Below, piece after piece: positions 427-34,400 of a DNA stretch of 64,000 nucleotides. Within the stretch, counting starts at the first letter, position 1. Each line of letters opens with the position of its first letter. Both the position numbers and the translations under genes were made by a program. The notes beneath the pieces were generated by a model. The model was not told where the DNA came from, did no database searches, and saw nothing but the letters and a program-made list of their open reading frames with translations. The DNA is from Phoronis australis (taxonomy: Eukaryota > Animalia > Phoronida), in contig NMRA01000979.1 in assembly GCA_002633005.1 (NCBI GenBank), forward strand, positions 16,835 to 80,834, read 5' to 3'.

Positions 427-1334
427 NAATGAATATGAAAAGTGATCGCCAAGTGTTTTGTCGTTTCTTTTTCATTTACGTTGAACTCTGTGCATTTACT
501 AACAGAAAACCAAATGACAAACCATAACAAAGTGACCAACACATGTGACCTGCTGTCGTAATGCGTCCAGTCACGAGAATGCAGCCTGACCTCTCACCAG
601 ATGTTTTGTACTTTCCGATATCAATTGTCGAAAATTGAACTCTTCAATTTACAGATATTGCAAACATGAAATAAAAGAAATCATTTACACACTAACTTTT
701 ACACACACAGTATCTCTCTCATCAATTCATCTGTATCCATATTGATTCCATTTCTCATAATGGAATTTTTTGTAAGATGAATTCGCTCAAAGGAGATCGC
801 CGTTCCTTAGGCACGACCCAGCTGCATATGAGGTAACTAACCCCAGAAATAGCAAAACTCATGTGTTCGAACGAAACCAGGTTCCCGGGTCTTTCATGCT
901 TGTATTTGAAACGAACACGAAATTATTTTGGCAATTTCTCTGCTCCATTTGTGCGAACTCAAGATAAGTAGTAATCAGACTGTGTTCAAATGCATTATAC
1001 TGTAGTTTATGCATTTGGGTTTCTAGTTCAAGTTTGCACTTGAAAACCCTTATATTCGTGCTACAAAGTCAAGTAGAAACAAAAAAATTGGAGTTCCAAC
1101 TGGAACTTTTAGCCTTAATGTTGGGTGTATCAACCGCAAATTAGGACTAATGAATTATTCACGTAAGTCATTATGTACTCAACCATAGAATAATAGACAC
1201 TTACTTTGAATTCCCAAAAAGAAGAGTAGAAAATGCCACAGTTTATTTAATATAATTTTGAGAACCAATTCGAGTAAAACGTTTAGAGACCGAGCCCAAA
1301 GAAATGCAAGAAAACGTGTACTCACAGTGGTTAC

Positions 1335-1457
1335 CTTGAGTACTTCAAAAGTTCTTGTAATGTAATCGGGTTTCGTCTCCTTGCTAGTGAGCGTGACGTT
1401 GATGTGGCCGTATCTTTCCACCTCATGCGAGTCTGGCCAGTACTCTTCGCATTTTCG
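1335..1457 (-). CDS. Gene A exon 36, PTP D1 (KCEEYWP); alternative donor would extend it to 1326
   Basis: PTP motif 7. Confidence 0.92.
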
Positions 1458-10400: not shown

Positions 10401-13400
10401 GCTATAGTATTTTCAGAAAAAGAGCACTGCGATTATCTGTACGACTTAGGGGTCGCAGACCAATCAGGTGTTTAACAAGAGTTGTAGTAAATTGGTGGGA
10501 ATTAATCGCATAGTGCTTCAACTATAGTACGAGATGAATTCTCCCTTCCAACATATCTATGTCAACGCTTTCCGAAATACAACCAAGAGCACGACGTAGC
10601 CAATGTTAGGATTGTTGCAGTCAGAAACCGGTGTTACCTACCAGTGCTGGCTTTAATCTACATGTATGCTTTGTCAAGTAACGGGTTTCAAAGAAATCTG
10701 AATTGTTCTACCTTCACAGCTGCTATGGAGCTTACCTGGATCGTAAAATGATCATTCACTGATCTACTCACTTGTGAGTTGCCAATCACAAAATTTGGAA
10801 TCCCAATTTAAAAAATTGTCATTAAAAAGTCAATTTTCAAAACGACCACGTTTCAACTTCAGCAAATTGAAACCTTTGGAGACTACACTAGTTTTAAACA
10901 GGTCAGTAGGTGAGTTGAAACTGGCTAAATGTGTTTTTTACTTTTGACGTCGTTTCTCAAATCGTGTCATCAACTTTTTGATAGAAGACTACCAATGATA
11001 AAACGTCCTGAGGAACAAAAGATTTGTGTGTTGGTTTGAGCAATGCAACTATCCACGATAAGGCTTTGATTTCAATTACACATTGTGGGGAAATTTGTGT
11101 TCCAAGGGGTAACTACCTACTCTAAAGTATCTGCCAATAGTTAATTACAATCAAGTTGTGTTTGTAGATTGTCGCAGCCGAAAGTGATACGCTAGATCGT
11201 GTATGGTAGTCGGAAAATGTGAGGACGATAACATGTTTCGTCAAAGCATGGGGGCTAGCACTGGCTTGTCTCGTTTGTCGCAAAATATATGTAAAACACA
11301 ACAGTAGAAATTTACACATAATATTAAATATTGACATTAAGTACGCTTAGAATAATTTGATGAACTTCGACCTCTTAACAGCACAAATTGGGCCAACATT
11401 GAGTATCAAAAATGCATATTTTCTTTTAAACCCTCAAAAGTACCAGGTTAAAGAACACAAAGCATTATTAATGGAACAAGAAGACGAACTTTTTAAAATA
11501 ACTTCAAGCAACAGAGCCTTCTAATGGTAGGGCTTTCGGGATAGAGAAGATCCCGAGTCGCACTTCAAAATATAAAAGTATAAATCTTCGAGCCAACTAA
11601 CTGTCCAGTTAATCAACTGCCCGTATTCCAACTCACCACTCTGATCTGTCGTAATGTTGATCCAGTCAGTCCACGGTCCAGCCAACTGTCGCACCGACGC
11701 CTGAACTCTGAATGCGTACTCTGTGTACGGCGTCAGGTTTAGGAAAGTGATATCACGACTACCTGTTTGATTTATGTAGACATTAGCCAAAACGCACGGA
11801 CCGTTTTCGTTACGTATGCTGTATCTGTAGTTGCTTACATTTCCATTTTGTTTCATACATTCGACTTCGTCCCATGTAAAGGACAATGACGAGTTCGATT
11901 TACTGATCAAACTTGCGTTTCGTGGAGGTGCGAAAGGGGCTGAAAAAAGAACGTACATGAATAGCACTGTCACTAAGAGAACTCACCCACTAACAGTATA
12001 CATTTTACGAACGGTGACAAAACAAGGACCTGCATACACTTGGGAAATTGGACAGATCTATAATAAAAAAGCCTCGTCAGTGAGATTGTGTTTTTCGGCT
12101 CAGAATATTTGGGTTATAGACCATTCATAGAACAGATCCTTACTACAGTAGGAAATTCGTCAAACAACCCTAATTCGTCATGCGCGGGACCAACACGAAC
12201 GTTAGTCCAGATGACATACAGTACTATCAACGTCTCTTCGGGATGCAAACTGTGCTGACCAAAGACTTAGATTCCATGTGAACTTACCATTTTCTACACT
12301 AAAATATCGGTTACAACCACGCAATGACATTGATACGATTGGCAACTGAAAAGTGCACGAAAATTCACAAATGTTTATGCAAATTAGAAGACTGACATCT
12401 AAATTCCCAATCCTGTGAGTTTCTAGGTCTGGCAATACCTTCACGAATCAAACAGTCCTATTCATCATAAAAACACAGTGGATCTATTTAAAGACAACCA
12501 AACTATTCGAAAACATGGAACATCTTGAGAAACCAAAATTACCAACAACTGTGTAATGCAGTTGGATCTATCCGAAAAAGCAGCAGGAGCTGGCGCCCCT
12601 CAGCCTAGTAGGTCAACGTATTGTGTAGTATAGCTAAAATAACTCCTACATCGCGTGTATCATAAAATTGTCAATAGACGTGGTGCAGAAATCATCTCGA
12701 TCTGAAAAAGCAGGAGTGAAAATAAATCTGACTAAACGGTGGAAGCTTTATAGGGCGTATACAAAGCGACTAATCTTTTAAAAATTGACTTTTATTCCCG
12801 TGCAATCCTGTCTTTTATTACCCTTTTCTTGTGTAGTGACATTCATCTTCTCAACATGCCCAGTTAGCGTTGGTCCCACTGGAGCAACTTCAATGACGTA
12901 TGAGGAAAAGGGAAATGCTTTCAACGATGCCTGATCTTCGTTTACAGACATCCAATTCGAAGAAACTTCAGAAGATCCAGGACACTGAGATCTAGACAAC
13001 ATTCTGTATCGCCATACATATCCCCTCAGTTGACATCCATCGTCTTGTGCTGGCGACGTCCACTTGATATGTAATTCGTCATTCAATTCCTCAGTTTTTA
13101 GTCTTTGAACTTCACGCAGACGTTCTTCTTGCGAGCTAAATATTGATTCAATTGTCCAAGGTCCGGGACCTGTCGCTGTGTACGCCCGCAATATCACGGA
13201 GTAATTTGTGAACGGAGAAAGGTTTGATAACCAAATAGATGTATTCACTGTTGTGTAAGTGTTTTTGAGGAATGCCACTGAACACCCCGTCGACAGCGTT
13301 GTTAACCGTACACTGTAATTTGTTATTATGCCGTTCCGTAAAGTGCAATCTGGTCGCAGCCATGACACATGGGCAGACCTGGCGGAAGCACTGATGCTGA

Positions 13401-16400
13401 CATTTTGTGGCCCAGTAGATGGCGCTAAAATAAACAGTGAAATTGAGTGAAAGACAAAGACATTGGGAAGCATAATAGCTCAAATCATGCCAAGACAAAA
13501 CTATATCATACAACTAGATGCATGTTCGTTTTAATGTTTCAAAAACACATAAACTACATGTACAGTTTATTATGGCTTCAGAAGCCGATTACTGAATACT
13601 TAGCAAACTACCATGCATGAACTATATCAGTGTCACCAATTTTTCGACCTAGTAAGTGTCACCAGAACGCATTCACAACAAACATAAAATGTAGAGCACA
13701 ACCTGGAGGAGGTATTTCAGTTCACTAATTCGTTAGAAAACGAACACCCGAGAAAATACCAAATATGAATTTACCCCAAACGACAGTTGTTTCATTTAAC
13801 CATTGGATATGATACCATGGAGACCCAAGAACACGACGAAACAAAACTTGAGTAGTAAATTACCTCTCGGATGGATAAATGGCATTAAAAATGTCAGTGT
13901 ATGAAAGGCAACACTAAATGAATGGATATGTGACCGGTGGAAGGAGGGAAAGCTAGCGTTAGGCACCCACAAGAGGTGTTGTATATGGAGGTAGAGAAAG
14001 GAATAAACCTTCACCTCTCACATATTTAAGCCAAAATGCGATTACCTTCTTCTTGTGTAGTGACATTCATCATGTCAACCTGCCCAGTTCGCGTTGGTCC
14101 CACTGGAGCAACTTCAATGACGTATGAGGAAAAGGGGAATACTTTCAACGATGTCCGATTTTCGTTCACACACGTCCAATTCGAGAAAGCTTCAGAAGTT
14201 CCAGGACACTGAGATCTAGACAACATTCTGTATCGCCATACATATCCCCTCAGTTGACATCCATCGTCTTGTGCTGGCCCCGTCCATTCGATATGTAATT
14301 CCCCATTCAGTTCCCCAGTTCGTATTTTTTCAACTCCACTCAGACGTTCTTCGTGTGACATAAATTTTGTTTCAATTGTCCAAGGTCCAGGACCTGTCGT
14401 TGTGTACGCCTGCACAATCACGGAGTAATTTGTGAAAGGAGAAAGATTTTGTAACAAAACAGACGTATTCACTGATTTGTAAGTGATGTTTACGAATGCC
14501 ACTGAACACCCCGTCGACAGCGTTGTTAACCGTACACTGTAATTTGTTATTATCCCGTTTCGTAAAGTGCAATCTGGTGGCAGCCATGACACATGGGCAG
14601 ACCTGGATGACACACTAATGCTGACATTTTGAGGTTCAATAGATGGCGCTACAAGAAACAGTGAAATAATGTCAATGACAATTACAATGCGAAGCACAAT
14701 GGCTCACATCACACAAAAACCACAAACACAATAACCTAAAAATAGTTATATCGTACAACTCGATACATTTTAATATTCAAAACAGCACATAAGCTACAGT
14801 TGATCATGACTTAAGATTCCCATTGCTGAATGCTTAGTAAAATATCAGACATAAACTATCACCAATTTACCAATCTAGAAAGTGCCACCAGATTGCATTT
14901 ATAACAAACAACAAATGAATAACATAATCTAGAGGAAGTCTTTCATTCACTAATCCTGAGAAAACGAGAACCCGAGAAAACACCAAATGATGAATTTCCT
15001 CCAAACGACAGTTGTTTCATTAATCATCCGATATGAAACTGTGAAGACCCAAGACCATTACGAAACAAAACTTTGAGATGTAAATAAGCTCTGGGAGGGA
15101 TAAATGGCATTAAAATGTCAGTGTATAAAAGACAACACTAGACAAATGGATATGTTAACGTTGGAAGGAGGTAAAGCTGACGTTAGGCACCCCCAAGAGG
15201 TGTTGTATATCGACCATGAGAAGGGAATAAAACTTCAGCTCTCACCATTTTCAGACAAAATTTGATTACCTTCTTCTCGTGTAGTGACGTTCATCATCTC
15301 AACCAGCCCAGTTCGCGTTGGTCCCACTGGAGCAACTTCAATGACGTATGACGAAAAGGGGAATACTTTCAACGATGTCTGATTTATGTTCACATACGTC
15401 CAATTCGAGAAAGCTTCCGAAGTTCCAGGACACTGAGATCTAAACAGCATTCTGTGTCGCCATACATATCCCCTCAGTTGACACCCGTCGTCTTGTGAGG
15501 GTGCCGTCCACTGGATATGTAATTCGCCACTCCGTTCCTCACTTTGTATTCTTTTAACTCGACTCAGACGTTCTTCGCGTGAACGAAACTTTGATTTAAT
15601 TGTCCAAGGCCCGGGACCTATCGCTGTGTATGCCCGCAATATCACGGAGTAATTTGTGAACGGAGAAAGGTTTGGTAACAAAACAGAGGTATTCACTGTT
15701 TTGTAAGTGGCGTTTACGAATGACACTGAACACCCCAAAGACAGCGCTGTTAACCGTATACTGTAATTAGTTATTATACCGTTCCGAAAAGTGCAATCTG
15801 GTGGCAGCCATGACACATGAGCAGACCTGGCAGAAGCACCAATGGTGATATTTTGTGGAGCAGTGGATGGTGCTACAAGGAACAGTGAAAAGTGTCATTG
15901 ATATGGATTATGAGAAGCGCATAGGCTATAATCATGCACATACCATAAACCAATTAACTTATCATTAGACAAATCATACAAGTATGTATCGCAGCAATAT
16001 AAATATCCTAAGTTTTTCATTGTTGGTTGGTCTTCAAGCATAAGCTAACAATGTCACTAATTTTGCCAATATTTTATTTGTCATCGAAACAAATTCACAT
16101 CGATTGCGAATGAGAAAATCCTTCAAACGGAATTGTTCATTTTAATCAGTTTCTGAGATATTTTCAAGCCACACGATCATGGGAAGACGATACCTAAAAG
16201 ATTTACTACCAACCGGATAAATGAGTATCAGGAAGAACCACCGGTGTATAAGAAATAGCAACAATGAACTGAGCAGCATATGAAAGGTGGAAGGACTTTG
16301 GGCACCCAAAAACGGTGCTTTACGAAGCATCAGAAACGAATAAAATTTGGTTTACCATCACTCTAAATGAGAATTTGATTACCTTCCTCCTTCGTAGTGA

Positions 16401-19400
16401 CGTTTATCTTCTCAACTGGCCCAGTAAGCGTAGGTCCCACTGGAGTAACTTCAATGGAGTATGTGGAAAAAGGGAATACCTTCAATGATGCCTGTGTGTC
16501 ATTCACATACTCCCATTTTGAGACAGGCTCAGAAGTTCCAAGACACCGAGATCTAGACACCAACGTGTATCGCCACGCAAACCGCTTCAGTTGGCACCCA
16601 TTGTCTTCTGGAGGAGACTTCCAACTAATATGTAGTTTTCCATTGCGTTCGAAGGCTTTTAATGTTTGCACTCCACTCAGACGTTGTTCGTGTGTAGTAA
16701 ACCTTGTTTCAACTGTCCAGGGCCCAGCACCTCTTCTTGTACACGCTCGCACTCTCACAGAATAATTGGTGAACGAAGAAATGTTTGAAAACAGAAACGA
16801 CGTATTTGTTGTTTCATAAATGATGTTGATGGATGAATTTGAACACCCTGCGGAGAGTGTTGTTAACCGTAAATAGTACTTCGTTATTACCCCGTTGCGT
16901 GAAGAGCAATTTGGTTGGAGCCATGACACGTGGGCAGAGCTGACTGAAGCATTAGTGCTAACACTTTGTGGAACACCAGATGGAGCTAGAGGGAATATAG
17001 GAAATGATGATGCAGAGTATTAGGAGTGATGTATCTATGCCATCTACATACCACAAATGTACGAGTCCTCATCAGAACCTGATCAAAGTAAGCCTGCAAA
17101 CTATAAACATGACAAATGGAGCCTCGGGACCCTGTAGTGTGAGATTGTCAGAAATCTAAGATTTCTAAGATGGATACGCATGAAATCAATATGAATTCCG
17201 CTGACCCACGCGTGGAAATTCTGCAGTCCCGGACTAAAGATTAGCATACACTGATTCTCAGATATCAGACAAGATGAAGCAAAATGATGGTATCTTTCCA
17301 TATTTCAAAAACTAAAAAAAACTGTTAAATTATAATAAGGCTCTCATTAAAGTAAATAAGGAACAATGACGGTTTCAAGTATATGTCTTGTTTGTACATT
17401 CTTCAAGCTCACCATCTTCAAGAGTAACTCCCTCTATCGACCTTTCTTCGCCCATAGATTCTGTTTTAGCCACAACCTTGATCTCATACTTAGAATTTGG
17501 CTGGAGAGCAGTGATGTTCTTCCTGGTCGATTTAAGAATTTCTTTAACTTCGTTTCCAGTTTGCAAATCTGCACACTGCACCACTTGAACCAGGCTATGC
17601 GTTAACTCGTATCCCATGATGGAACAACCATTATCTTCGGGTTCCTTCCACATAATCACCATAGAGCGGCTGGTTGTGTTGGAGGGATGTATAATTAGAT
17701 TCTGTACGGGGCCTGGTGCTAGAGAACAACACACAAAAACTAACTGAGTGTTTCAATAACTCGTACTTAAGATAACAACATGATCAAAATGTAGGGTGCA
17801 AAATGAATCAAGACTAATCAGCCTATGTGCATTTTTGGCACTGAGAATGAACAACCTGACAATGTTAATCCACTAGAATAACGTGTGAAGTGGATTGCCA
17901 TCGTCGTGACTGTGATACCGCGTGAACATTCCTGAAAAGCTAGACCAGTAAACAAACACAATGACAAAGGAATATAGGCACAGCAGATGCAAAATTGAAA
18001 AAAGCGACACCAGTCGGAATAATTGACTAAAGTCATCTCCATCGCTAGAGAAATACCTCTATTCCTGCTAGTAATGGTCTTTTCATCGGACAGGCTTGAC
18101 ATGTGTTTATTGAAGGCTCTGATTCTTACTCGCCAGGTGGTGCACGCAGCCGTATACAGTGAGGTACTACTCGATGTAACGTTGGGCAACATAATCCACT
18201 TGCTACCTGTTGTTGTGTTGATATACTCTATTACATAATAGCCAGGTGTTCCGCATCTCCAGTTAAATAGGTCAACCTGAATGTGTCAGAAAGGAAATGG
18301 ATTATACATGAACATGAAAAGAGATTTCGCCAATATTAATTTTCTTGAAGGAGATCGTTATCTTTTTGAAGGCCTCATATTTTCATTTTGACACATTTTA
18401 CCTAGGTTAACAGGTATTATGAACCTGACAAAAATTACCGAAACCTTTGTAGATTTGTAATGTAAAGCTTATGGGCTAGAGGTTACCTTGCTATACCCCG
18501 GCCACTTTCTGAGAGTTTAATATATCAACTCAGATGACATATGATATTCATGACTTTTTACGACCAGATACAGTAATCAATGCGAGAATTCCAACATACG
18601 TTGGACATGAAAATGTCTGCAGTTGGGCATCGTGTGTACATTTTAGCCACAGTATAGACTAGTTTAGAGGTCCACAACAATTCTAGGTCGAGTTCCTGTC
18701 ATTCTATAAGTGACGTATATCAATGGCCAGTCTTCAATATCGGCCTGTTAAACGTCCTGGCGACATCACTAGAAAGACGAGTACGCCCATCAAGTTCTGC
18801 TTGAACAAAGACATGTTGTTTGAACGTTTGAAACCAAACGAAATACGAGCATGGATCCACTTACATCCGTCGCTGACCTAACGACCCGCGTGACGACAAC
18901 TGCGTTCGACATATTGGTGCCGTCACCCGGATCTTCTAATATAATGCTCAGATGAACTCGGGCACTTACTGCAGACTGGATACAGTACCCAACATGATTG
19001 TTAATTAGCAATGTTTTTTAAATGAAACAAATCTTACCAAAATGGTTATGTTAGCCGAGTCAATCTCCCTGTTTGACAATGTGAACTGGGGGGTTTCTGG
19101 TTCTGAAATGCATAATTTGATTGAATATCACACAATAAATGCAGGAACAGTAATGCAAAAATTACACTTTGTCTTTCAACCACACTGGTCTTTATGTAAA
19201 ATCCCAAACTTTCCTGACTTTTTTTACGTTTTACAGGCTTTTTTTCTTGTAAATTGTTATTTATGTAAACACCATTGTGAAACAAGGCTACTACGTTCGT
19301 ACCATCCCGATCGTAGCATCACACTTACCCTAGAACGGAGCTTTAACCACGCATCTGAGGACATCATAAATCAAGTAAATCACGTGACTTTCAAAGTGGG

Positions 19401-22400
19401 AAATAACTAGCGGGATTACTTTCATCCATGAAGGGAATCGAGGCGTCGGAAATATCCTTGATAGTCCGGATTCTAACGTACCTGCGCAGACTTCTACTTC
19501 AGGACTTGCGTTCCCAAGGAGATCATCTCCAATCTTGATCCGTATCCTTACTTTGTATATCTGGGTAGCGTTCGCTTTCGAGATATTGCAAGTAAAAACT
19601 GTCTCATTCCTAATATTGACAACTTCTTTTGATAGCCAGCTCTTATCATCCTTCTGTTTGTACTCAACAACGTATTTTTCCACATGTCCCACGCCATGGC
19701 CAGTCCCACTCCGCCACCGAGTCCACCGGATGTATAAAGCTTGCCCTGTTCTGGTAACGACAGTCGGAGGTTGCTTGAGTCTGGCGATTTCTGTAAAGAG
19801 GTATATTCAAAGAAAAGTAATCTCTAAGAATCATGTTCTATTAAGAATCAGACGATGTTTTGTTCGTACATGTACAATAAACTAGCGGTCGATTAACCTT
19901 AAAGCAAATACTTAGGCGGCAGTAAAGCTACCTTCCGTCAGAGAAATCCACCTCTTATTTTTCAGACTACTTGCCGTTAAGAAGTTGGCGAAAATTTATT
20001 GCAGCTTTAAATGATTTAAATACTGAAATACGCTTAGCATACTTAATTTGATGTCATTTCATGTTATACTTAATTATTTTGATGTCATTTCATGTTTACC
20101 AACCTGTTCGACAGTATGGGTATGTCATGTACCCAGGAGCACAAGCACCATCTGGACAGTGACCAGTATAAGGACTACAGGTGGCGTTACTGTCACAATG
20201 GCCGCACGTCTGCTCACAGTCAGCACCGTAATATCCATGACTGCAGCCTTAAAAGTTAACCCACAAAATAACAGGACATGCAAACAAAAGTTGACAGCAT
20301 TTGACCAAGAAAAGGAAACCACTTTCTTTTATTCACCATATTTGTAACCAACTCAACATTATTATCAAGATTCCAAAATATTGTTCCTATATCTTGTTTT
20401 GAGAAACTTCATCAAAACCTATTTAGGATTTTCTTTCTTGTTTCTTTTTTGTGCACCTGTAGTGTATTTGAGCTTGCAAGAATTGAATTATTGCGGATAA
20501 ATAAAACAAAACAAAAATAATATATGTTTTAGGCTGCATTGGGAATTTCAGGGTCACTGCTCTACAATTAATTATTTTAGAGAAGTTACCAGATGGGAAC
20601 CTTAATTACAAGAGATAACAATACCCAATGTGTAATTGAGTATCGAATACTAAGTGGCAGACCGCAGTATAAAACCAAATGAATACATAATATCAAATGG
20701 GTATTGACCGATTGCCTACCAAGTGGCTCGAGCAAAACGGCAAATTCAATAATAAGTACCAACTGGGTGCAAACTGCCAAATGGGAAATATCACTGACAT
20801 GGCTGCAATTACAAATTGAATAGCTTGCACACGAGTCTGGTCATTTCAGCAGTCAGAGCTTGAAACTTTTTTTAAAAGAACGACATTGTACACCTGGGCC
20901 TGAGAATTAATCTATACTCGAAGCTCGACCTGAAATTTGATCAAGTACAGTGCTCTTACAAAGTAAACTTTCAAATTTGTATTGAATAGGAGTCTGATTT
21001 GAGTTTAAAGAACTCGATGTCTCGGTCTGTGTACAACGCAGCACACAATAAAATACCAATGCAATTTTGCATACAATAAATGGTCACAAACCTTGACTGC
21101 ACGCCATTCCCTTGAATCCAGCAACACACGAACACCCGTATGGATCATTGGTACACACATACTTTCCTCGACACCCGTCCACGTGACCGTCTTCCGAGCA
21201 GGAAAATGAGCAGTTACTTCCAAATCGGTTGCCTCCACAACCTAACGGCGCAAAAGAAGTATCTCCAGTCAGCTATTAGTGCTTTTTAACGATAACACTA
21301 TCTTTCAACAAAAGTAAAATCGCAATTGCCAGGGCAAGAAAACTGACTGGATTTTGGCTCCTCAAAACTGTTTTTAAGTTATTTAACAAGCACAGTGTAG
21401 CTCAGTTCAAATTGTTTGTGAAATGAGAGTTTATGTAAGATTACTAATTAGACGAGTTGTCGTTAGAAAGCAAGAGACGACTGTTCTCGCCAATCTTCAG
21501 TGCCATGTTACCTTTGAAGGAGGCGTGATACCTCCGACGTTATAAGAGTGTTTTTTGCGAGTATTGCCCAGCAGACCTGATTGAATTCGAATTCAATGAT
21601 CTTTCCCGGATCGATCAACACCTACATTTCATTAATCACGTGGTCATTGTCATTGAGCTGGTTAGTTAGTAGTATTTGCAGTAGTGTAAGGTAGTGCTTA
21701 CGTTTTATAGTGACTTTAAGTAGGCCTACAGCCTGCACATCAATTCCAACAACATATGAATTGTAATAAGAATATGTACACAGACCGAATTAGGCCATTT
21801 GTCATTCAACACACGACAGGAGAGCAATGAAGAAAGTATTAATATAATTAAGTCTATGCTTCCACGCGGACTTGACTAATCTTGAAAATTATCCATGACA
21901 AAGGTGGAATATTAATGTTAGGCACTAAGTTAATCATAAACTGAACCATCAAATGTTGCAATCCATCTTAATTGTGAATGAGATACAACATACACGTAAC
22001 CTTTCATAGACAGCAGTATATGACATGTTATCCCATACGCGTTGAATCTATCGAGGGAAATACGGACATTTAATATTCGTTTTTGTATTCACCTGCCGCA
22101 CTACTTTAACAGTGACCTCTGACATGGATAGTTCAAAAGCCAGGTAGGGCAATGTCGACTCGACATCGTTAGGTGGTTATGTAATCAAACTTTCCGAAAA
22201 TAGCTTAAAGTGATACAATTGCAGCGGTGTAAATAATACTCAACATGTAATCAGGTCTCAATCGTAACATCTGGAACAGGGTTGTTAATTATATGACAGT
22301 TCTGTCTCAGTTTTCATTTCCTAATTATTATATCGTCTGCAACTAAGGTGCCGATTCCTCGGTATCTACGATATCAAATGTTGTTTTTATTTAATTATTT

Positions 22401-25400
22401 TCAGTAGACGTTACAAGTTCAGTGCAAATTTGCCGGTGTTCTCCTCCCTGTTATCTCTTTTCAAGTAATACATCGTTACATTTAAAACTGTTTCTTTTGC
22501 TACAAAAACTTGCAACCTAACGCACAAGTACATACATATAGGATGTGATCCGCCACGTGAGCAGTCTGAGTGAAGTATTTAAAAAATCTGTGGAAAACTG
22601 AAACAAACTTAGGAATTCGAAGCGTATCGACATTATTCTGCATTTCGACCTCGACCTTCGGTCTCGGTCGATACGCAGAATAATGACTCGTAGGATATTA
22701 CATCATGTACGCCACTCTTGGTGCGCTTTGTGTATTTATGTATGTCATAACGATAAGTTTCCATGAGAAGATTAAGAGTTACAGCCCTATGCTTGGCCAA
22801 TAGGGAGCGCTGGAAACGTGACCTATAATGTTTTATACATTGTGAGTTGCATGCCAATGCTTGAGTAAAATATAATTGTTTATGCGAATCATCACGTGCT
22901 TTCACCTATCGAACAGATATCTCCGCGAAATCCCGGGGGGCATATACACTCGCCCGTGATGTCGTGACAAACACCTCCGTTCTCACATTGCGGACAGTCG
23001 TCTGTGCAGTCGCCACCAAATCTACCTCGACGGCAAACTAGAAAATGAATTGAAATCAGATTATACAGAGTCAAAATATTTACATTACACCCTACTGACC
23101 CTCAGTTACGGATCTTAAATCTTACAGTGTGACGGGACATTGAAGGAGAATGTCAGCCTGAAAGCAACCTATTTTTGTATCAATTTAAATCGAGTAGTTC
23201 CACTTGATAATAGCCACTACAGCTCTGTTACTTGACACCTGACGACAGACGGAGGTGTTGAAATTAATTAATGACGTCAGAGGTTTGAACACAGTGAAAT
23301 CACTGTCGGTAAAATGCCGGCCACTGACGGATACGGAGAAGTTTCACGGCCTCACACTTGGTATTAACGGCGTACGTTTCCTTTATCGTTACTGCGAGCT
23401 TCTTTCGGAGCATTATGGGCTCTCGAGGAAATCGAAAAACGATATACCAGCTTTCTTCGCAGCTTCATAGTTCGCACAAGCGGGAAAGATACACCACACC
23501 ATTGCGTCACTCACTCTGCAGAAGAACCATTGACGTAGCGGCATCGTTTCTTATCTCCCTCACAGGTTAACGCGGCAAATATCGACTAGATAAGATTGAC
23601 CGTATACGAGGTTCTGCTGGTATAGACCGATTAAGACAGTAAAAAATACTAATTAAATCGGGTGGCATTCTCCTTTAATGACGCTCTGACCTTAATGCAA
23701 GCATATTTTTTAATCATACCACACAGCACTGAACCCAACGTCGATTATTCAATCGTGCAGAGCTATTCAGAACAATTTGCTTTGTTACAAAATGGAAAGA
23801 TGTAATGTATACAAATATGATTTGTTAAAACATTGTTCCAGACATAAAAAACATAGTTGAAGAAGACCTTGTAACAATTTTTTTTTAACAGCGATACATA
23901 TTTTCAACCTCTAACAATTAGTCGAGTAATCCCAAGCACTTCTCCACTTGACAGACGGATGGTGTAGACTCCACCGTGTCCCTCCTCTACGCTGTCGATG
24001 CTGTTTGTTAGACTTCCCTGCCAGCTACTTATGTATCCCTCATTGTAAAATCCTTGGTTGTCTTTTTGCCACTGTATACCTAATGGGCCTATACCGTCGA
24101 ATGTTATTGTTGCGCGATCTCCGACGCTAACTCTCGTTGCTAGAGCGCTTGAAGCTTGTAAAAGATCAAGGAAACCAACATGTCAGGCTTATGAGAAACA
24201 AGCATTTGCCTTAAAGATAAAATCAAATATTTTATTGATGCTATCATTGAGTAGGCCACATGTTGAGCATGGAGATATAAAATCGACAAAAATGAAATTC
24301 AACCGTTTTCGAACTGGACTATGTTGAGATACAAGCACAAAACTGGGACATACGTGTATACTCACTTCATTTCAACTGCAATCTGTTTCAATTTTGGCTA
24401 AAACTTGACACCGATTTCTCACCAAACTGACAAAATTGCGACAGCATATTCCAAAAATATACATGTACAACATTAGTAAACAGTTAGGGGTAAGGTGTAT
24501 TAACTTCACATAAAACTTCCACAAAGCTTTGACAAAAACGTCTTTATTATTGCGACGAAGGTTCGATTATGCTGCCAACTAATTTTGTCAAGATGGTAGA
24601 GTTCTGTTAAAGTTTGTCTAGTTTATTTTTGAAATTACTATCTACTCAAATACCTGCAATCACTGGTTTCCCCCACACTTCCACTTCACACAAAGAAAGC
24701 GTTTCTGATTTGCTGTTGCCATTCTTTATGATGTACAGATATCTCCCAATGACGGGACGGTCACAAGCTATATACACTGTAGTGGCGTCACTAATGTTGC
24801 CGGTGTGGTGTTTGCACAGAGCGTCGGTAGAGGTCGCTGATGGAGTGTCACTTGTATTGGAGACCCGGACTTCAAAATCTTTTAAAGATTCGTCAAGATC
24901 TGGATGCACATAGCAATTCTTATTCATAATTAAGTACATGTACCATAAAATTGATATCAATCTGAAATTGTTATGACGAGCACGGGAATACATGTATTTT
25001 CGTGTAGATGCTCAAATACTTTTCGTGTTCTGCTGTTTCAAAAAGAGTACTTTCTGAGTACGGAGTCTCACTCTATGTCGTTGTAGTCCACAGAAATCCG
25101 CTTTGAAAACCGGGTCTGAAATATTTCTCCGTAGCTAATTAAATCTTATGTCACACACACTTAATGGCACAGAACTCAAGTCCTGGAATATCAACTTCGG
25201 TCTGGCGTTGCTGAGGTTACGCCACGCATGCGTGGCATTTCTTTGCATGTGTTTGTTCCGGTGTTGCTCATTCCTGTGGAACTTACTGGCTCTAAAACTC
25301 TTTGGAAATCTGCCGCTTTTCAACTGAATTGCAAAAAGTCATATTACTAGAAGGACTTGAAAAATTGTTGATGGTGAAGACCGCAGCAGAAGCAAACGTT

Positions 25401-28400
25401 AAATAATTTAATTCATTAAAATCATCATTTCGCATACCTGACAGATTTAAAATGTTTTTTTTTTAATTCTAAAAACCTAAAGTGTCACCAAAATTGAAAA
25501 AATAACAAGGCGTAATAGTACCTTAAACAGCAACGCTGAACGTTGATATCGCATATAGTGCAGATAGAAAATATTGTCACACATTTATACATGCTCACTC
25601 ATAAAGAATTAAAAGTGACACTGATGCACAGTGGCAGTCAGATACGTCCAAACGTCACCTGTTGTCACCCTCATAGAAAAATGCTTGCCAAATTTCACAA
25701 AGACCCAGCAGGGAGAAACACCTGAGGATGCAAAGATAACAAACTGCCATTAGGGGGCGCTTAAGTAGTCGAACTGTAAAACATTGTCAGCAATTCTCTT
25801 CCTACCAGGGACACATTTACTGATTTCCATAACAATTAGTAGAGTGCTTTGGCCGATAGAGTGATGGACGCCAAAGACAGCAACTCGGAGGCGTACTTTA
25901 AGTAAAATCAATCTGAAAACAAAAAGTGTCATCGAAGTTTACCAAATTTCATAAAAATCTGCCAAGGAACTCCTGAGGATAACGGAGAAAAATAAAAAGG
26001 CCACACACGAACACAGCGTTCATTGGATAAGTCCAAAGGTCGTTGTCACATGTTGTTACCTTCATTAATACAGATAAGGTATAGAATATACAGCTAAGAA
26101 CGCAACAAAGAGAAAATTGCAACTAGGAGGCACCACGGTAGTGGGCGCCGTCCAAACATCATCGTCACATGTCCTTTTCCAAGAAAGAAGATATAATTAT
26201 CCTAAGAGTGGTTTGGATGACACAGAGGCTGACGCCAAAAGCAGACTCAAAAATAATAAAAAGGTCACTAGGTGGCGTGTACAACGTCAACTCCTTGTGA
26301 AAACAGAAAGATGTCATCGTCTATTCACCAAATTTCATGCAAATCCGGCCAGAAACTCCAAAGACACATAGAAAAACGGAAAAATACAATTGCCCCTAGG
26401 GGACACAGGAGTTGATGAATACGTCGGAAAGTCGACATCACCTGCTGTTGCCTTCATATAAATACACCTGCCAAACTTAACAAAAATCCTGCAAAGGAAT
26501 TAACAGATACAACCACGGACGCAAAAACAAAACTGCCACTAGGAGGAGCCACTGGAGTCGGAGCTGTCCGAAAATCATCGTAAGCCGTCAACTTCCTAGT
26601 AGGAACATCTGTCATAATCAATGTTATTGTGGTTTGGTCAGTTGACGGGTAGATAGCAAAACCAGACTCGAAAACCGTAAAAAAAAAAGAAAAAACAAAA
26701 CAAACGGCCACTAGGTGGTGCAAGATAGTCTAATCCACTTGAAAACGTAAAAATAGCGTCATATTTTTAATACATGTAGATACCTATTTGCCAAATTTCG
26801 TGAAAATTTATCGAACACCGAAGATACGGAGGCAAACTTAAACTACTGAATTTGGCACTAGGAGGCACACCGGTAGTCGGTGATACTGGAACAGGTATTG
26901 TGCATTACCTTAAACAAGAGACATTGGAAGACATCTTTTAAGATAATGTTACTAAAGAAAGTGGACTGTGCAAATTAACAATATGCATGGCAAAAAGACA
27001 AATGAACACCTGTTCCACAGATGTCATCATTTGAGAATAAGAACACGGGGGAACTGGACATAAAGGCGGGAATTCAAGATAAAATGCAAAACATTTGGTT
27101 CTATGCCAAAACGCAAAAGTGTAATGTTCCCCAATAGACAAGAAAACATCAGCGTTTTTTTCGAACCCGAATTATTACACGCAAAATCGCGCGATGGCTT
27201 TTTTTAAAGTCAAATTCTCAATTCCAGGTTAATAAAAAATCATGAACCTTGTCGTTTTTTCTTTTTGGTTGAACAGGGAAATACTGCTATGTAGTGTGAG
27301 AAATTACAGTGTCGCCGTGTGTCAAAAAGCGGGATATTTTGATCGTGCGACGAAATGTCAGGATTTTTTACAAGGTTAACTTTACATTTTTAAATTTTAT
27401 TTCCGTTGTTGGTCAGTGTTCGAACATCACCGAATAAGTGTGCTGACACGCCGTGCCAGTTAGTCTGAAAATTTACTGGCCTGGCTGCCAAATTGCTTTT
27501 AAATGTTACTGACCCAGCTGCAAATCCAATGGCCCCGGGCCAGGCCACCGTGTATTTCGAACACTGGTGTAGGTACAACAGATAATATTCACTGTCAAAT
27601 CACCTGGGTAACAGGTAAACATTCTAGAAATCAATTATTTTTGAAACAATTGAAATGAGTAACAGGGTATGCAAAAACAAACTAACCCTAACCCTAAAAC
27701 TTTAATTCTTTAAATACATTGAACACATCGAAAATGGGAAGGAGTTCGTCCTCTCTCAAGATTATTTTTCCAAATTTTATTAAAATCCGTTAAAGAACTC
27801 CAAAGATACAAAGGCGAACGTTAAAAAAATACCAAATGCCGTCGCCGTCGTTGTCTGTTGTCAACTTCATATCAATACACTTGCCAAACATAATGAAAAT
27901 CCTGCATAGAGATGCAGCAACATATGCAAAACACTGTCACAAGAGGTACATCGGTAGTCCGAATGGTCCGAAAATCATTATCAGTCATTCGCTTCAAAAT
28001 GCCAGTGGTTTATTTGATATAGCGTCGGAGGCCAACAAACAGACCAGAAGACAGTAAAAATGGCCACTATTTGACGCAAAATACGTCGAGCCTACCCGAA
28101 AACGGGAAAATGTCATCAATTACCAAATTTAATAAAAATCCGTCAAGAAACTTCAGAGAAACAGAGGGATACGGAAGAAAATGAAACTGCCACTAACGTG
28201 AACAAAGTTCTTAGAATCCGTCTGAAAGTCGTCGTCGTCCGTTTTCAAATTCATAAAAATACACCCGTAAGTTCAATAAAAATCCTGCAATGAGCTAAGG
28301 AGATAAAGCTATGGGCGCAATTACAGAACCACACTGCCACTAGGAGGCACCACAGTAGTCGAAGTCGTCCAAAATCATCGTCAGCGATCCTCTTCACCTT

Positions 28401-31400
28401 AGGAACATATATCCCTGTTTTCACAATCATCCCTAGAGTGGTTTGGTTAGTAGAGGGGTGGACGCCAAACAACAGACTGGGAAACAGTAAAAATGGCTAA
28501 TAGGTGGTGGAAAATACCCGGAATCCATACGAAAACAGGAGGATAGCGTCATCCATTACAAGATGTCGATGTTCCGAATTTCATGAAAATCCGTTGAAAA
28601 CTTTGGAAGATGCAGAGGTAAACGTAAGAAATGTAAATTACAATTAGGAGACGCACAGGTTGTAAGATCAGTCCGAAATTCGCCGTCATCATAGAAATAC
28701 ATCTGACAAATCTTATCAAGATCCTGAGGGGCTTAGAAGATTAGCTGCGGACGCCCAGCGGACGATAGACACCCACACGCCCGCCAGACAAAGATGAAGG
28801 TAATACGCACCCACATATAAATGGGGTAGGTGCATAATAATATAACAAAGGCGACATCTTTGACTGTGTGTACTGCCTGTCGTCTAAACCTGTATTTTAT
28901 CAGAAATTTCGACCTTTTGAAATTTGATCGTGGTTTGTTAGCACACTGAAAGCTGGCCCAATGAGTTCAGGGTCTTGGAAATATCAAATTTCATCCCCGA
29001 TCTGTCATCAGTTTCACAAGTCAAACATCAGTCACCAGAAGAATTTTGTAGTCGTAAAACTAAAACAGTTAATACAACGGCAACCGCTCTACGTACGCAT
29101 TAAACTTGCAGAAAGGCAACTTTCGATTATTTATTTTCTGCAGTTTACATGCAGGTTCAAATAAAAACAAAACTAGATACTTTTAACAGAGAGGACGGCT
29201 ACACAGTTACGGAGATTTTTTGAAGTTTTTGTCTGGTTTTGCATTCTTTTAGGATTAGGAAAATAAATAAAATAGTTACTTGAATGGTATCAAAATCGAG
29301 AGTAAAATCTGAAGAAACGTAATTTAAATTATGGAACATTTACGATTGTCAGTTTGAATGAGTTTTTATGTGCCTGGTACATCTCGTCAACGTTGACGCA
29401 AATCCACATTCAATCTACATGTAATACCTGAACACAAGCTCACGTTGCAATGCTTCCACCGAACAGAAACAAGGTAACACCACGGTCCACCTTCCGTGTC
29501 GTCAGGATTCCGACAGAAATTTTCATGGGATTTCGGTTTCTTAGTGCTTTTCCACATTTTACATTTTTCGCCATTGCTTGCTGTGTTGACTTTGCCCATG
29601 TAATCCTTCCCGAGTTCTGTATACTTGCAATCATCTAAATTGACATTGTTTAAAAGCGAGGCATTTATCATTGTGCATTCATCTCACGGACGACACTGAA
29701 CAACAAACATCTTGGCGATCTTTTGAGATACTATTCTGAAGAGTTTAATAAAAATGTCATGTTGAAAATTAGAATTCATATACAACGTGTCATTATTGAT
29801 AAAATTGATGTCAGAGACAACCCAACGCAGACAATTCAAAACTGTTTAGCTAAATCAAATAAATCAACAATGTAGGACAACGTAACATTCAAAATAGGCT
29901 TAAAAAATCACAGTGCCACCTAGCACTAAGTTGAGTTACCATAAATTCACCGAGACAATAAAGAAAAGTTGACATTTGTTCAGTTAAAAGAGGTGCAAGA
30001 TGGTGTAAGGTGTTCATGGAAAATATGCTTACATTTTTATTCAACGTTTTCTTGGTTATAGATTATGGGTCTGGGTAAAAGAAAACCAAGATTTGCTTAT
30101 GGTTTGATAACCTTTTAAGCTCAGACAGTTCCGTTATAGCCTTGGACAATCGTACGAATAGAATCGTATAATCCTAGTCAAATCATAATCGTATCGTAAT
30201 AACATCGTAATTACAAAATGTGCATCATAGTCATATCGTTATCACATCTTAATTACAACGTAATCAAGTGCACCTCTTCCCGACAAAGGCGATTTGTAAA
30301 AAAATGGCCACGGTTGTTTAAAACTATTTTAGTAAAAGGTTCTGTGGTGATTGGCAAAAGAACAGGTCACCTAAGGCAAGTGAAATTAAAGAAATTACAC
30401 AGCAAGTGCCACTACAAAAACACTCACGAGAGCCGTTTCCACTGGTTATGTGTATCCCGTGAACAACGAAGGTTCCATTGAATTCCGCTCTCCACCACGG
30501 ATTTTGCAGATGACTTCTCTTCAATGTATGTGAACAAGACTTTCCCTTCAAGAAGTCTGTAGAATGACTGCCATCAATGGCCTTCCCGGCGTCAGCAGTG
30601 AAACTGAACGAGTGAGAAACAAGACTCAGCGTCGACGACTGGTCAGCTTTAGAGAGAGGAATTTTACCTACATTTGAACAAAACAGGTATTGTACGCATG
30701 CTTTCTGTAAACAAGGTAACTGGTGAATAGATGAAGACAGGCCGGAGAAAGTAATTACAACTTGATACGCATGTTTCCCTAAATTTTAAAAATAAAAGCG
30801 ATATCTGAGGTTGTTACAGTGATCCAAAATACAGCACCGGCAGCTATCAAACAAAGAAATATTCGGATAATTAAGGGGAAATCTAGTATATGCAAAAATA
30901 ACATATTCCATACGTGCGCACTTCTTGACTCCCACGCCATTTTACCAAATGTACATTTGTCGAAAAGTTATGTTCGTGAGTTGAGAAACGACGTCAAAAG
31001 TAAAGAAAAAACAAATTTCGTCACTTTCAATTCAACTACTTGCTTATGTTTTACTAAAATGAGCAAGGAAAGGGCAGTAGTCGTCGAGAATTTCAACTAG
31101 CGCAAGTGGAAACAGAAAATGGAGTCGTTTTTTTCGGTAAAAGGTCGAGCAATGAAGCAATTCGCATGGTACCAACTTGAAGATCGGTAAGTGGACTTCC
31201 TGGCATGCAAATCAAAATCTCCCGACCATAGAATCACCCTGACCATCAACTAAAACACTGCACATCACTGGTTGCAAAAATGACAACAATTCAAAAATAT
31301 TGTCCATTACAACACGATTTTTTAATTCTTCCACTGTGGTTGTCGGGCAAAATAATCCACCCTTAACGATGTCGCCGAGTATATGCTACTAACAAACGAA

Positions 31401-34400
31401 AGCCATTGAAACGTTAGCAGAGGAATCCGATTATATTTGCTGTCGGGTACAGTAAGGTATTACCATAGTGGGGGCTCACAACCCTAGAATACAAGTTAGT
31501 CTTGCTTCCAGTAGCCGTGAAGACGTTTACACCAGTGTGTATATGAAACTCCTTGTAGTCTAGTCTGCTTGATATTGACTGGACTTCTGACGGTGATAAC
31601 GTTGAGACACTTGCATCATACACGCTGGCTGATATGAGGTCAGTGGCTAGGTCAACGTTACTTCCGCCGTAGACGCGGACAGTTCCGGAACCCATTGACG
31701 AAAGTGTACTCAGACGGTAGAGTGGCTCTGAAAATTTTTTATGAGATATTTTATCCGTATGTGAGGCTACTCGCGCTCAGGTCATTAGAACGTGTATCAA
31801 TTGCGTCATTAAATAATAAAAACAAATTGATAAAATGAAAAGTAAAATTAGTTAAAGATACATGGAACGCGAAAAACAGACTCAATTGGAATATTGGAAG
31901 TGGTTCCGTGACACTAAAATGGAATTGAACCTGCTCACACGGTGTTTTTAAGGTTAGTTCGTAATGGTTTTTAATTTCTGTTGATATAAAACCATTTTCT
32001 TTTAGTTTCAAATTTCAGAAAAAAAAAACAATTTGTAAACTGCTCGCCCCTTCGCCTATTTTCTTCTACAAGGCAAAGCAGACATCCTTATTTGTTATGG
32101 CAAGACACAGACGTAGCACACTCCCCTAATATGGAAAATGTGATCTTTGACCTCAATGGACTTCAAGCATTTAACTGTGAGCGCATGCATGTACTTATCA
32201 TGAGTGGGAGGTAGATTACAAATTCTGTGGTGACCACAGAGCCATTCCTTCGTGCATGGTTCAACCGTGCGCGCACCCAGGGTGGGGGGGGGGGGGGGNN
32301 NNNNNNNNNNNNNNNNNNNNNNNNNNNNNNNNNNNNNNNNNNNNNNNNNNNNNNNNNNNNNNNNNNNNNNNNNNNNNNNNNNNNNNNNNNNNNNNNNNNN
32401 NNNNNNNNNNNNNNNNNNNNNNNNNNNNNNNNNNNNNNNNNNNNNNNNNNNNNNNNNNNNNNNNNNNNNNNNNNNNNNNNNNNNNNNNNNNNNNNNNNNN
32501 NNNNNNNNNNNNNNNNNNNNNNNNNNNNNNNNNNNNNNNNNNNNNNNNNNNNNNNNNNNNNNNNNNNNNNNNNNNNNNNNNNNNNNNNNNNNNNNNNNNN
32601 NNNNNNNNNNNNNNNNNNNNNNNNNNNNNNNNNNNNNNNNNNNNNNNNNNNNNNNNNNNNNNNNNNNNNNNNNNNNNNNNNNNNNNNNNNNNNNNNNNNN
32701 NNNNNNNNNNNNNNNNNNNNNNNNNNNNNNNNNNNNNNNNNNNNNNNNNNNNNNNNNNNNNNNNNNNNNNNNNNNNNNNNNNNNNNNNNNNNNNNNNNNN
32801 NNNNNNNNNNNNNNNNNNNNNNNNNNNNNNNNNNNNNNNNNNNNNNNNNNNNNNNNNNNNNNNNNNNNNNNNNNNNNNNNNNNNNNNNNNNNNNNNNNNN
32901 NNNNNNNNNNNNNNNNNNNNNNNNNNNNNNNNNNNNNNNNNNNNNNNNNNNNNNNNNNNNNNNNNNNNNNNNNNNNNNNNNNNNNNNNNNNNNNNNNNNN
33001 NNNNNNNNNNNNNNNNNNNNNNNNNNNNNNNNNNNNNNNNNNNNNNNNNNNNNNNNNNNNNNNNNNNNNNNNNNNNNNTTTTTTAAATGATAGTTTTAAG
33101 TGTAGAATGTATTTTTGACGAGGTGAAAACTCGAAATCGGTAACACAAATCCGGTCACGACCCGTTTGAAATACACTGAAGTAACGAAATGAGTACAGAA
33201 AGCGAATGGAAGTATTGTAGCCCCTAGATGGCCCCGCGTTGGTTTGAATGCGCTAAATCTCCCCTTACTCCCAGCTCTCCTAATGTTGTTTATCCATTTT
33301 TCACGAAATTCTTGGCTTGCAGGGAACTCATAAAATTCAGATTTTTATCTCTCTTGTTGTTTTTGAAGCAGCCAGGAACACAACAAGTGTATCCGCCGTA
33401 AGTTTTCTTCGCGCTCACCGCTTATTATGCTTGTTACTATGGCCGCTTTCGGAATCCTGACCACAGCACCCACAATGCACCATTTTAACCTAATTTCAAT
33501 ATGGCGTCGCTGCAAATCCGCTATTGTCCGAGCATAATTTTGTTGTTAATATTAGGTAAAAAGTCAGAAGTCGAAAGCATATGAAATTTAAACCAGAATA
33601 ACTAAAGTCAAATTGATGGAAGATAATAAATAATGGTCGTTTTTTGAATCAGTTTTCACTTAATTCACAGTGAATAAAAATTAATTCGGTCACTTACCAA
33701 TCTTTCTGGCCGACACGAAACGTTTGCATTTCCATCGGTAATGATACCTGTAAACAATTTGTTGAACGAATAATGCTCCATCCGACCGTAACATTTACTG
33801 TACGTGATGTATTTATGATAGTTAGTGGCATTTGTTTCGAAATTATCCATTCACGGTTTTTATAATGCAGTCATAGAAGTCATGTGATACCGGTCCGTCG
33901 GAAAGCATTTAACATTTTTGACGGATGGGCCAAGCTGCTACTGAGTGCTTGAAACGTGATATTGAGCAACGGGATAGAAAGAAAATTGTGCAATCTTGCA
34001 ACCTCTCCCCGTCAGCTTTTCTTCTCTCCACAAAAGTTTACACATCCACTTGCCGATCGTAATAAAGTCGTAACCCTATTGCGACCAACTTCCCGTGCCC
34101 AACACCGCGTCAACTTAACCTTTACGATTCAGTTAATTTTCAGAAAACATTTTCCGGTAACGTCATTTTAAATAATGACTTCTGGGGGACTATTGGATGC
34201 TAAATGTTTTTAAGACTCATAAAGGTTTTTTAGAAAATTATCCGCAACAACAAATAACATATTATGATTTATAATGATACTGAACCATATTTTATTGTGT
34301 TGACCCCAAATGTTTCTTTCTCCTGATATTGTGTTATTGGTGTATCCCTGGAGGTTGGACGTAATGTTCAGCCAAAACATTATGTTCACATTTTCATACA

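Follow-up and report, generated by a model that had tools for sequence, protein, structure and literature searches.

In a receptor-phosphatase-type gene of the phoronid Phoronis australis, a single F-type lectin domain is interrupted in its sugar-binding loop by a complete kringle exon. The gene lies on the minus strand of a stretch of 64,000 nucleotides (GCA_002633005.1, contig NMRA01000979.1, positions 16,835 to 80,834), referred to below as the window and numbered from its first letter. Our preferred reading, to which we assign a probability of roughly 0.63, holds that this kringle likely entered a pre-existing phase-1 intron, that transcripts likely include it as a rule and that the two halves of the lectin domain would close one barrel. 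The nested domain is real and probably functional.

The split lectin domain and its kringle

Three minus-strand exons make up the arrangement: the F-type lectin domain's N-half (30428..30667; 240 nucleotides), the kringle (29428..29634; 207 nucleotides, six cysteines) and the C-half of the lectin domain (24654..24899; 246 nucleotides). Each is preceded by AG and followed by GT, and in each the phase 1-1 frame is the sole open one. Coordinates, lengths, phases and translations all agree with an earlier note on this DNA, which had described these exons. They are separated by two phase-1 introns with GT..AG ends on the same strand, one of 793 nucleotides before the kringle (29635..30427) and one of 4.5 kb after it (24900..29427); no assembly gap lies between the two lectin halves. 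The longer intron consists mostly of degenerate dispersed repeats (about 25650-28730), a family with at most seven copies of shared units of 25-90 nucleotides, which is deeply covered by reads from other loci. Spliced forms with and without the kringle are both free of stops.

Against the Pfam profile PF22633, the N-half matched positions 1-38 and the C-half positions 46-89 of 91, each weakly (E ≈ 0.01) and below the cut-off. Among solved structures, the halves came closest to two F-type lectins, striped bass FBP32 (3cqo; E 5.7e-12 and 7.4e-05) and the agglutinin of the eel (AAA; 1k12), and the N-half aligned to residues 27-78 and the C-half to residues 112-151 of the solved F-type lectins. 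We built an F-type profile of our own (160 columns) from 283 domains of the 150 proteins listed among the 232 matches of an HMMER search with the N-half; this search was biased to multi-repeat proteins, and single-domain receptors would mostly rank too low to be listed. In this profile the N-half occupied columns 26-84 and the C-half columns 91-159, and the kringle-skipped form scored 97.8 bits as a single domain over columns 26-159, that is, with F-type homology over the whole domain. Skipping of the kringle would thus rejoin the lectin in frame, as had been claimed. When 3403 six-frame segments of the window were run against the profile, no further lectin half was found, the next match having an E value of 3.1. 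Hidden exons that complete two separate lectin domains, which the earlier note had named as one of the outcomes that would overturn its proposal, are thereby ruled out within the window, which holds only the two complementary halves. Because the halves are complementary, unique in the window and without a gap between them, they represent one split domain and not two truncated ones, in line with the original description.

In F-type lectins, the fucose triad is formed by His52, Arg79 and Arg86, with Asp81 and the vicinal pair Cys82-Cys83 in or beside loop CDR4. Structural clamps are Cys50-Cys146, Cys108-Cys124, Asp64-Arg131 and Arg41-Glu149, together with the cation ligands Asp38, Ser49, Cys146 and Glu147; the cation motif is h2DGx (PMC5712786). 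Conservation was assessed in 502 full-length domains out of 576 domain matches in 148 of the 150 listed proteins, 74 partial domains being excluded. A threshold of at least 60% among the 502 domains gave 41 conserved columns, 35 outside the fucose loop and six inside it. The domain described here keeps 27 of the 35 core positions and none of the six in the loop (Fisher p 0.0007). All four core cysteines (equivalents of Cys50, Cys146, Cys108 and Cys124) stand at conserved columns; since one of them is in the N-half and three are in the C-half, a bond between Cys50 and Cys146 would reach across the kringle. The cation motif and its ligands are present as AIDGS, a serine before the first cysteine, and LCEV (equivalents of Asp38, Ser49, Cys146 and Glu147). 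The Asp64-Arg131 salt bridge, which crosses the halves, is Glu-Arg here, and Arg41 is replaced by His.

The loop presents a different picture. The fucose motif HX24RXDX4(R/K) is broken: His52 is kept, but Arg79 is replaced by Gly, Asp81 by Ser and Arg86 by Ser. The equivalents of Cys82-Cys83 are lost as well, and the fucose loop carries an N-glycosylation sequon. The earlier note was therefore right that the histidine is kept and the rest of the motif lost, and right also to place the kringle at the ligand face, as the exon interrupts CDR4 of the single split domain. From these residues we predict that the domain no longer binds fucose. The loss need not stem from the kringle, because uninterrupted domains also lose loop and basic residues; degenerate F-type domains of this sort have been described (PMC5712786), and the loss of the motif may be older than the insertion. 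The terminal cysteine pair of the kringle occupies the place of Cys82-Cys83 of the lectin. We regard this as a likely coincidence, because the kringles of plasminogen and HGF also end in Cys-Ser.

The kringle exon matched Pfam PF00051 over positions 2-79 of 79 (E 9.9e-14; 51.9 bits, cut-off 34.3), and the six-cysteine kringle reported earlier is thus complete. The exon encodes 69 residues, with cysteines at residues 2, 24, 40, 52, 62 and 67 and a distance of 66 residues from the first to the last. The first and last cysteines of kringles pair with each other. Here only two residues separate them from the junctions on either side, in keeping with insertion into a loop. At E ≤ 0.001 the kringle matched 84 solved sequences, with plasminogen and HGF on top. 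The canonical lysine-binding site of kringles comprises Asp55, Asp57, Arg35, Arg71 and an aromatic residue at position 72 (PMC9736318). This site is partly kept: in our mapping of the numbering the exon has counterparts of Asp55, Arg71 and Trp72, the counterpart of Asp57 is uncertain, and a deletion removes the Arg35 region. Judged by these residues, binding of lysine is possible; the ligand of the kringle is likely a protein.

The two lectin halves were also folded as separate chains. The result gave weak support for their association (score 0.47 versus 0.02 for the best control); the runs shared at least 93% of contacts, and the pLDDT (predicted local distance difference test) of the partner was at least 63. 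In this assay 51 of 78 solved pairs and 2 of 108 mismatched pairs reached the mark applied, passes with a score of 0.60 or less came from only 5 of the 78 solved pairs but from all 4 passing mismatches, and halves of a split domain may pass through their likeness to solved lectins. The halves reached a pLDDT of 60-64 when folded together, versus 34-38 for chain 1 with unrelated partners and 44 for the C-half with an unrelated chain. Given that the cysteines of the cross-half disulfide, the cation site and the salt bridge are kept and that the terminal cysteines of the kringle clasp its ends, we infer that the barrel closes around the insert.

Transcripts and origin of the insertion

Three raw-read runs under the same species name (X1-X3; of each, 18-19% was read) and a contig set (X4) were used to analyse RNA over positions 19300-32200. 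First mates mapped to the plus strand, the orientation that a minus-strand transcript should give in most stranded libraries. Exon depth was estimated from bins of 431 bases that include intron, with few reads per exon. In X1, X2 and X3, respectively, the estimates were 5.3, 3.2 and 0.2 for the kringle, 2.8, 2.3 and 1.1 for the N-half, 8.0, 2.6 and 2.7 for the C-half, 3.4, 4.0 and 2.0 for the exon upstream of the lectin, and 1.3, 3.1 and 0.4 for an EGF exon. The depth over the kringle was hence comparable to that over its flanking exons in two of the three runs (X1 and X2). The intron bin 24903-25333 gave 0 in every run, and the bin 29644-30074 gave 0.52, 0 and 0.

All 13 delimited exons of the ectodomain are of phase 1-1. 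The symmetry of the kringle exon is therefore not special, because each of these exons would be equally skippable. The strength of splice sites was estimated by leave-one-out scores over 17 exons of the gene, and those of the kringle ranked in the middle (donor 8th equal and acceptor 13th equal of 17). Its donor (6.7) equalled that of the C-half; its acceptor (1.3) equalled that of the Ig exon and exceeded that of the N-half. Weak splice sites that would mark the kringle as a cassette exon were not observed.

Class 1-1 modules, including kringles, enter pre-existing phase-1 introns as a rule and can be lost again through exon skipping (PMC3927616); such insertions are real but account for less than 10% of domain gains (PMC2926785). 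We surveyed the boundaries of partial F-type domains among the 150 listed matches. Fragments with only the N-terminal part ended at columns 85-94 in 12 of 46 cases, and those with only the C-terminal part started at columns 90-94 in 5 of 23; a second cluster of fragment ends was located at columns 100-119. Protein P0084 starts just after and stops just before one same residue of the CDR4 loop, proteins P0019, P0028 and P0157 also end at that place, and protein P0144 passes into non-lectin sequence there. Seven records with a break in CDR4 were looked up; these were five Saccoglossus models, mostly labelled 'partial', one from Glandiceps and one from Mactra. The hemichordate fragments break at columns 89-92, within one to two codons of the boundary here, and as protein fragments they point to an exon boundary in CDR4 of other invertebrate F-type genes. 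In oyster bindin an intron lies 'in the middle' of each F-type domain (PMC5712786), and FBP32 has its intron not in CDR4 but at the barrel's bottom, near Glu123-Cys124 (PMC5712786, PMC12221842). Because hemichordate F-type models break in the same loop, the intron seems to be older than the kringle, and the kringle likely entered this existing phase-1 intron by ordinary exon shuffling.

These data suggest how the arrangement may have arisen and how it may work. A kringle exon would have entered a pre-existing phase-1 intron in CDR4 via exon shuffling and would likely be included in transcripts as a rule. The two lectin halves would close one beta-barrel and project the kringle from the former fucose face, such that the lectin would likely act as the scaffold on which the kringle is displayed. 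Binding would then likely take place on the kringle, with a protein as the probable ligand, and binding of the ligand would tune the phosphatase via receptor clustering.

Alternative explanations

Several observations weigh against our preferred reading. No junction reads, either for inclusion or for skipping, were found among the 15 of 79 joints listed, all of which lie in repeats. In run X3 the kringle has less than one read, and none of the three exons is represented in contig set X4. The intron bin 30937-31367 gave 1.37, 0.61 and 0 in X1, X2 and X3, on par with the N-half bins, and therefore unspliced or repeat reads contribute to the depth. In the lectin itself, 16 of the 502 uninterrupted domains also keep none of the six loop positions, both basic residues are missing in 38 of the 502, and the core (27 of 35, with 8 of 35 positions different) falls slightly short of the mode among the domains compared (29-33). 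Folding of the kringle alone from its single sequence yielded a useless model (pLDDT 42). Neither an orthologue nor a second nested example was present among the 150 listed matches, none of which exceeded 49% identity. The common boundary in CDR4 is read from protein fragments and is off by one to two codons, and the link from the head exons to the phosphatase rests on colinearity. The stranded signal in the bin 30937-31367 could itself come from a repeat, from RNA that was not spliced or from an exon that escaped recognition.

The earlier note had inferred that inclusion and skipping of the kringle give two ligand-binding isoforms, and a regulated switch between two receptor forms with different ligands would accommodate some of our data. 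Skipping keeps the frame and leaves a loop of 9 residues (mode 8), the depth over the kringle in X3 (0.2) is far below that over the C-half (2.7), and oyster F-type lectin genes are diversified by splicing (PMC5712786). However, the dip in X3 is within noise, because the downstream EGF exon also has a depth of only 0.4, and both the phase symmetry common to the ectodomain exons and the mid-rank splice sites of the kringle argue against a switch, as does the lack of a skip read among the joints listed. Nor would skipping bring fucose binding back, since it is the flanking exons that have lost both arginines; the skipped form lacks the equivalents of Arg79, Asp81, Cys82-Cys83 and Arg86 and so has no evident ligand. 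The claim of two isoforms was thus not upheld, and we regard a splice switch as unlikely. Somewhat less probable still is a kringle exon that is a mere passenger, young or neutral and mostly skipped, with a working protein that contains an intact, sugar-blind F-type domain. The lack of an orthologue with the insert among the listed matches and the motif loss in domains without insert fit such a passenger, but the kringle exon is intact, with its six cysteines, unbroken frame and unremarkable splice sites, no donor copy of it exists in the window, and its RNA depth equals that of its neighbours in X1 and X2.

A lectin fold broken by the insertion, with the kringle as the only part that folds and the halves left as relics or spacers, would be compatible with the low two-chain score and the eight altered core positions. 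We consider it very unlikely in view of the four core cysteines, the cation motif and the salt bridge between the halves, all kept while the loop alone is erased, and of the rise in pLDDT when the halves are folded together. An assembly artefact, in which the kringle exon of another locus was joined into the intron, is the kind of error that a repeat-rich intron and a window with gaps might invite; yet there is no gap between the halves, strand, phase and frame all fit, and the strand of the RNA agrees with the host gene, which makes such an error highly improbable. At the other extreme, the F-type barrel may be an antibody-like display scaffold with the CDR4 intron as a socket for 1-1 modules, in which the kringle has replaced fucose recognition and regulated splicing turns ligand sensing on and off. 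This broader proposal seems doubtful to us; were it true, paralogues would hold other modules in the same CDR4 socket.

If our preferred reading, that of a kringle regularly spliced into one closed F-type barrel, is correct, the locus would be a natural case of one recognition module grafted on the binding face of another, with the core of the host kept and its binding loop erased. A mid-domain intron in a ligand loop would let exon shuffling alter receptor specificity, and the locus points to a tolerance of the F-type CDR4 loop for whole-domain inserts. Split domains of this kind fall under Pfam cut-offs as two weak halves and may thus be overlooked in annotation.

The host gene and comparison with known systems

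All features of the host gene are on the minus strand. Upstream of the lectin, the only exon identified is 31464..31727 (phase 1-1, 87 residues, no Pfam match, covered by RNA), and a gap of 780 bases occupies 32299-33078. The 87-residue exon is probably part of an unnamed domain, and other exons possibly lie in the gap; a signal peptide exon was not found upstream of the lectin within the window. The lectin domain is followed by an Ig-like exon (23909..24154; weak Ig_3 match, E 0.008), three EGF-like exons (23037-22906, 21241-21092 and 20247-20104, spanning 20104..23037) and a run of fibronectin type III (FN3) exons (7909..19790), four of which are large two-domain repeats. Downstream of these, a reading frame at 5058..5186 contains a hydrophobic stretch, read from the sequence as a transmembrane segment, and there is a weak PTP_tm match (E 0.06). 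The first tyrosine phosphatase exons (1320..2653) were recognised by sequence motifs; the gene continues past the window, with the catalytic motif outside. Nine consecutive exons (31727 to 19482) join into 645 residues without a stop. The layout fits the assignment to a receptor tyrosine phosphatase gene in the earlier note, as the Ig, EGF, FN3, transmembrane and phosphatase parts are colinear on the minus strand; on the basis of this colinearity, we infer that the head exons and the phosphatase exons belong to one gene. The ectodomain resembles what we take to be the TIE-like Ig-EGF-FN3 receptor tyrosine phosphatases of invertebrates.

Some further observations concern this gene and its surroundings. 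The four large FN3 exons at 12781-17019 (minus strand), close-alike and about 600 nucleotides each, with two FN3-like units and extra cysteines, are the product of a recent expansion of exons in tandem. At 23953, 24040 and 24043 in the Ig exon, the reads of X1 and X2 depart from the assembly without exception, each difference changing a residue, which hints at a polymorphic ectodomain. A difference at 24676 in the C-half exon, where X1 has 12 reads, is silent. A second, paralogous receptor phosphatase gene lies in tandem upstream (exons in 56200-63400, minus strand; one matches PF00102), and four of its exons share 75-86% identity with those at 1320-2653. Short frames at 33293-33545, 55761-56067 and 23303-23550 share a Cys-x-Val-Pro-x-Cys / CSEHF pattern and resemble remnants of THAP-domain transposons; the two tested had no Pfam match.

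The nested architecture was not encountered elsewhere. The earlier note knew of no described kringle nested in an F-type domain of a receptor phosphatase, and no nested kringle occurs among the 576 domain matches in the listed proteins. A Pfam scan of 33 of these 150 proteins detected no kringle and no phosphatase, and no phosphatase motif was present in any of 157 retrieved proteins, hence no receptor was available for direct comparison. Word-based searches with the N-half, the C-half and the kringle (proteins of about 120-2000 residues) were blank even for the kringle and thus carry no weight. A metagenome scan with the kringle returned three loci, none with an F-type half; one contig (L001) has two kringle-coding exons (207-460 and 880-1180) and is unrelated to the present locus. 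Literature searches on F-type lectin, fucolectin or FTP together with kringle did not find the arrangement; subscription papers were mostly outside this search, and the domain-architecture tables in Bishnoi et al. 2015 may have a bearing on the question. A search on receptor tyrosine phosphatases and F-type lectins turned up only an unrelated review. A 2025 review mentions neither kringle nor phosphatase, and a mussel transcriptome paper mentions kringle and fucolectin once each. In sum, the mechanism of origin is a known one, whereas the architecture was not found in the literature and proteins searched.

Among the 150 listed matches, only one protein, amphioxus XP_078580859.1 (P0012), contains both kringles and F-type domains. 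Unlike at the present locus, its kringles (965-2609) and F-type domains (4385-5588) are apart and nothing is nested. With AAA and FBP32, the domain described here shares the cation motif, the cysteines of the two core disulfides and His52; it differs from them in the loss of Arg79, Asp81, Cys82-Cys83 and Arg86, in the kringle exon in CDR4 and, judged from the genes, in belonging to a membrane-anchored phosphatase-type receptor. The Ig exon, the three EGF-like exons, the many FN3 units, the transmembrane segment and the phosphatase exons appear to be shared with the TIE-like receptor tyrosine phosphatases of invertebrates. The kringle has the six-cysteine pattern and the CRNPD and PWC motifs of the plasminogen, HGF and prothrombin kringles (4a5t, 7mo7) and, with those of plasminogen, the Asp55 and Arg71-Trp72 equivalents. 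In contrast to plasminogen kringles, it has about 12 residues fewer between its second and third cysteines, where the Arg35 region is deleted, and the equivalent of Asp57 of plasminogen kringle 1 is Thr in our alignment, an uncertain assignment. It also differs from the kringles of plasminogen, HGF and prothrombin in being encoded by one exon and nested within another domain, not placed between domains. The FN2 repeats of MMP-2 lie inside its catalytic domain. Like these repeats and the kringle of thrombin, the present insert is a symmetric phase-1 module in what is likely a pre-existing phase-1 intron (PMC3927616); unlike in those cases, it is hosted by a lectin barrel and inserted at a ligand-binding loop.

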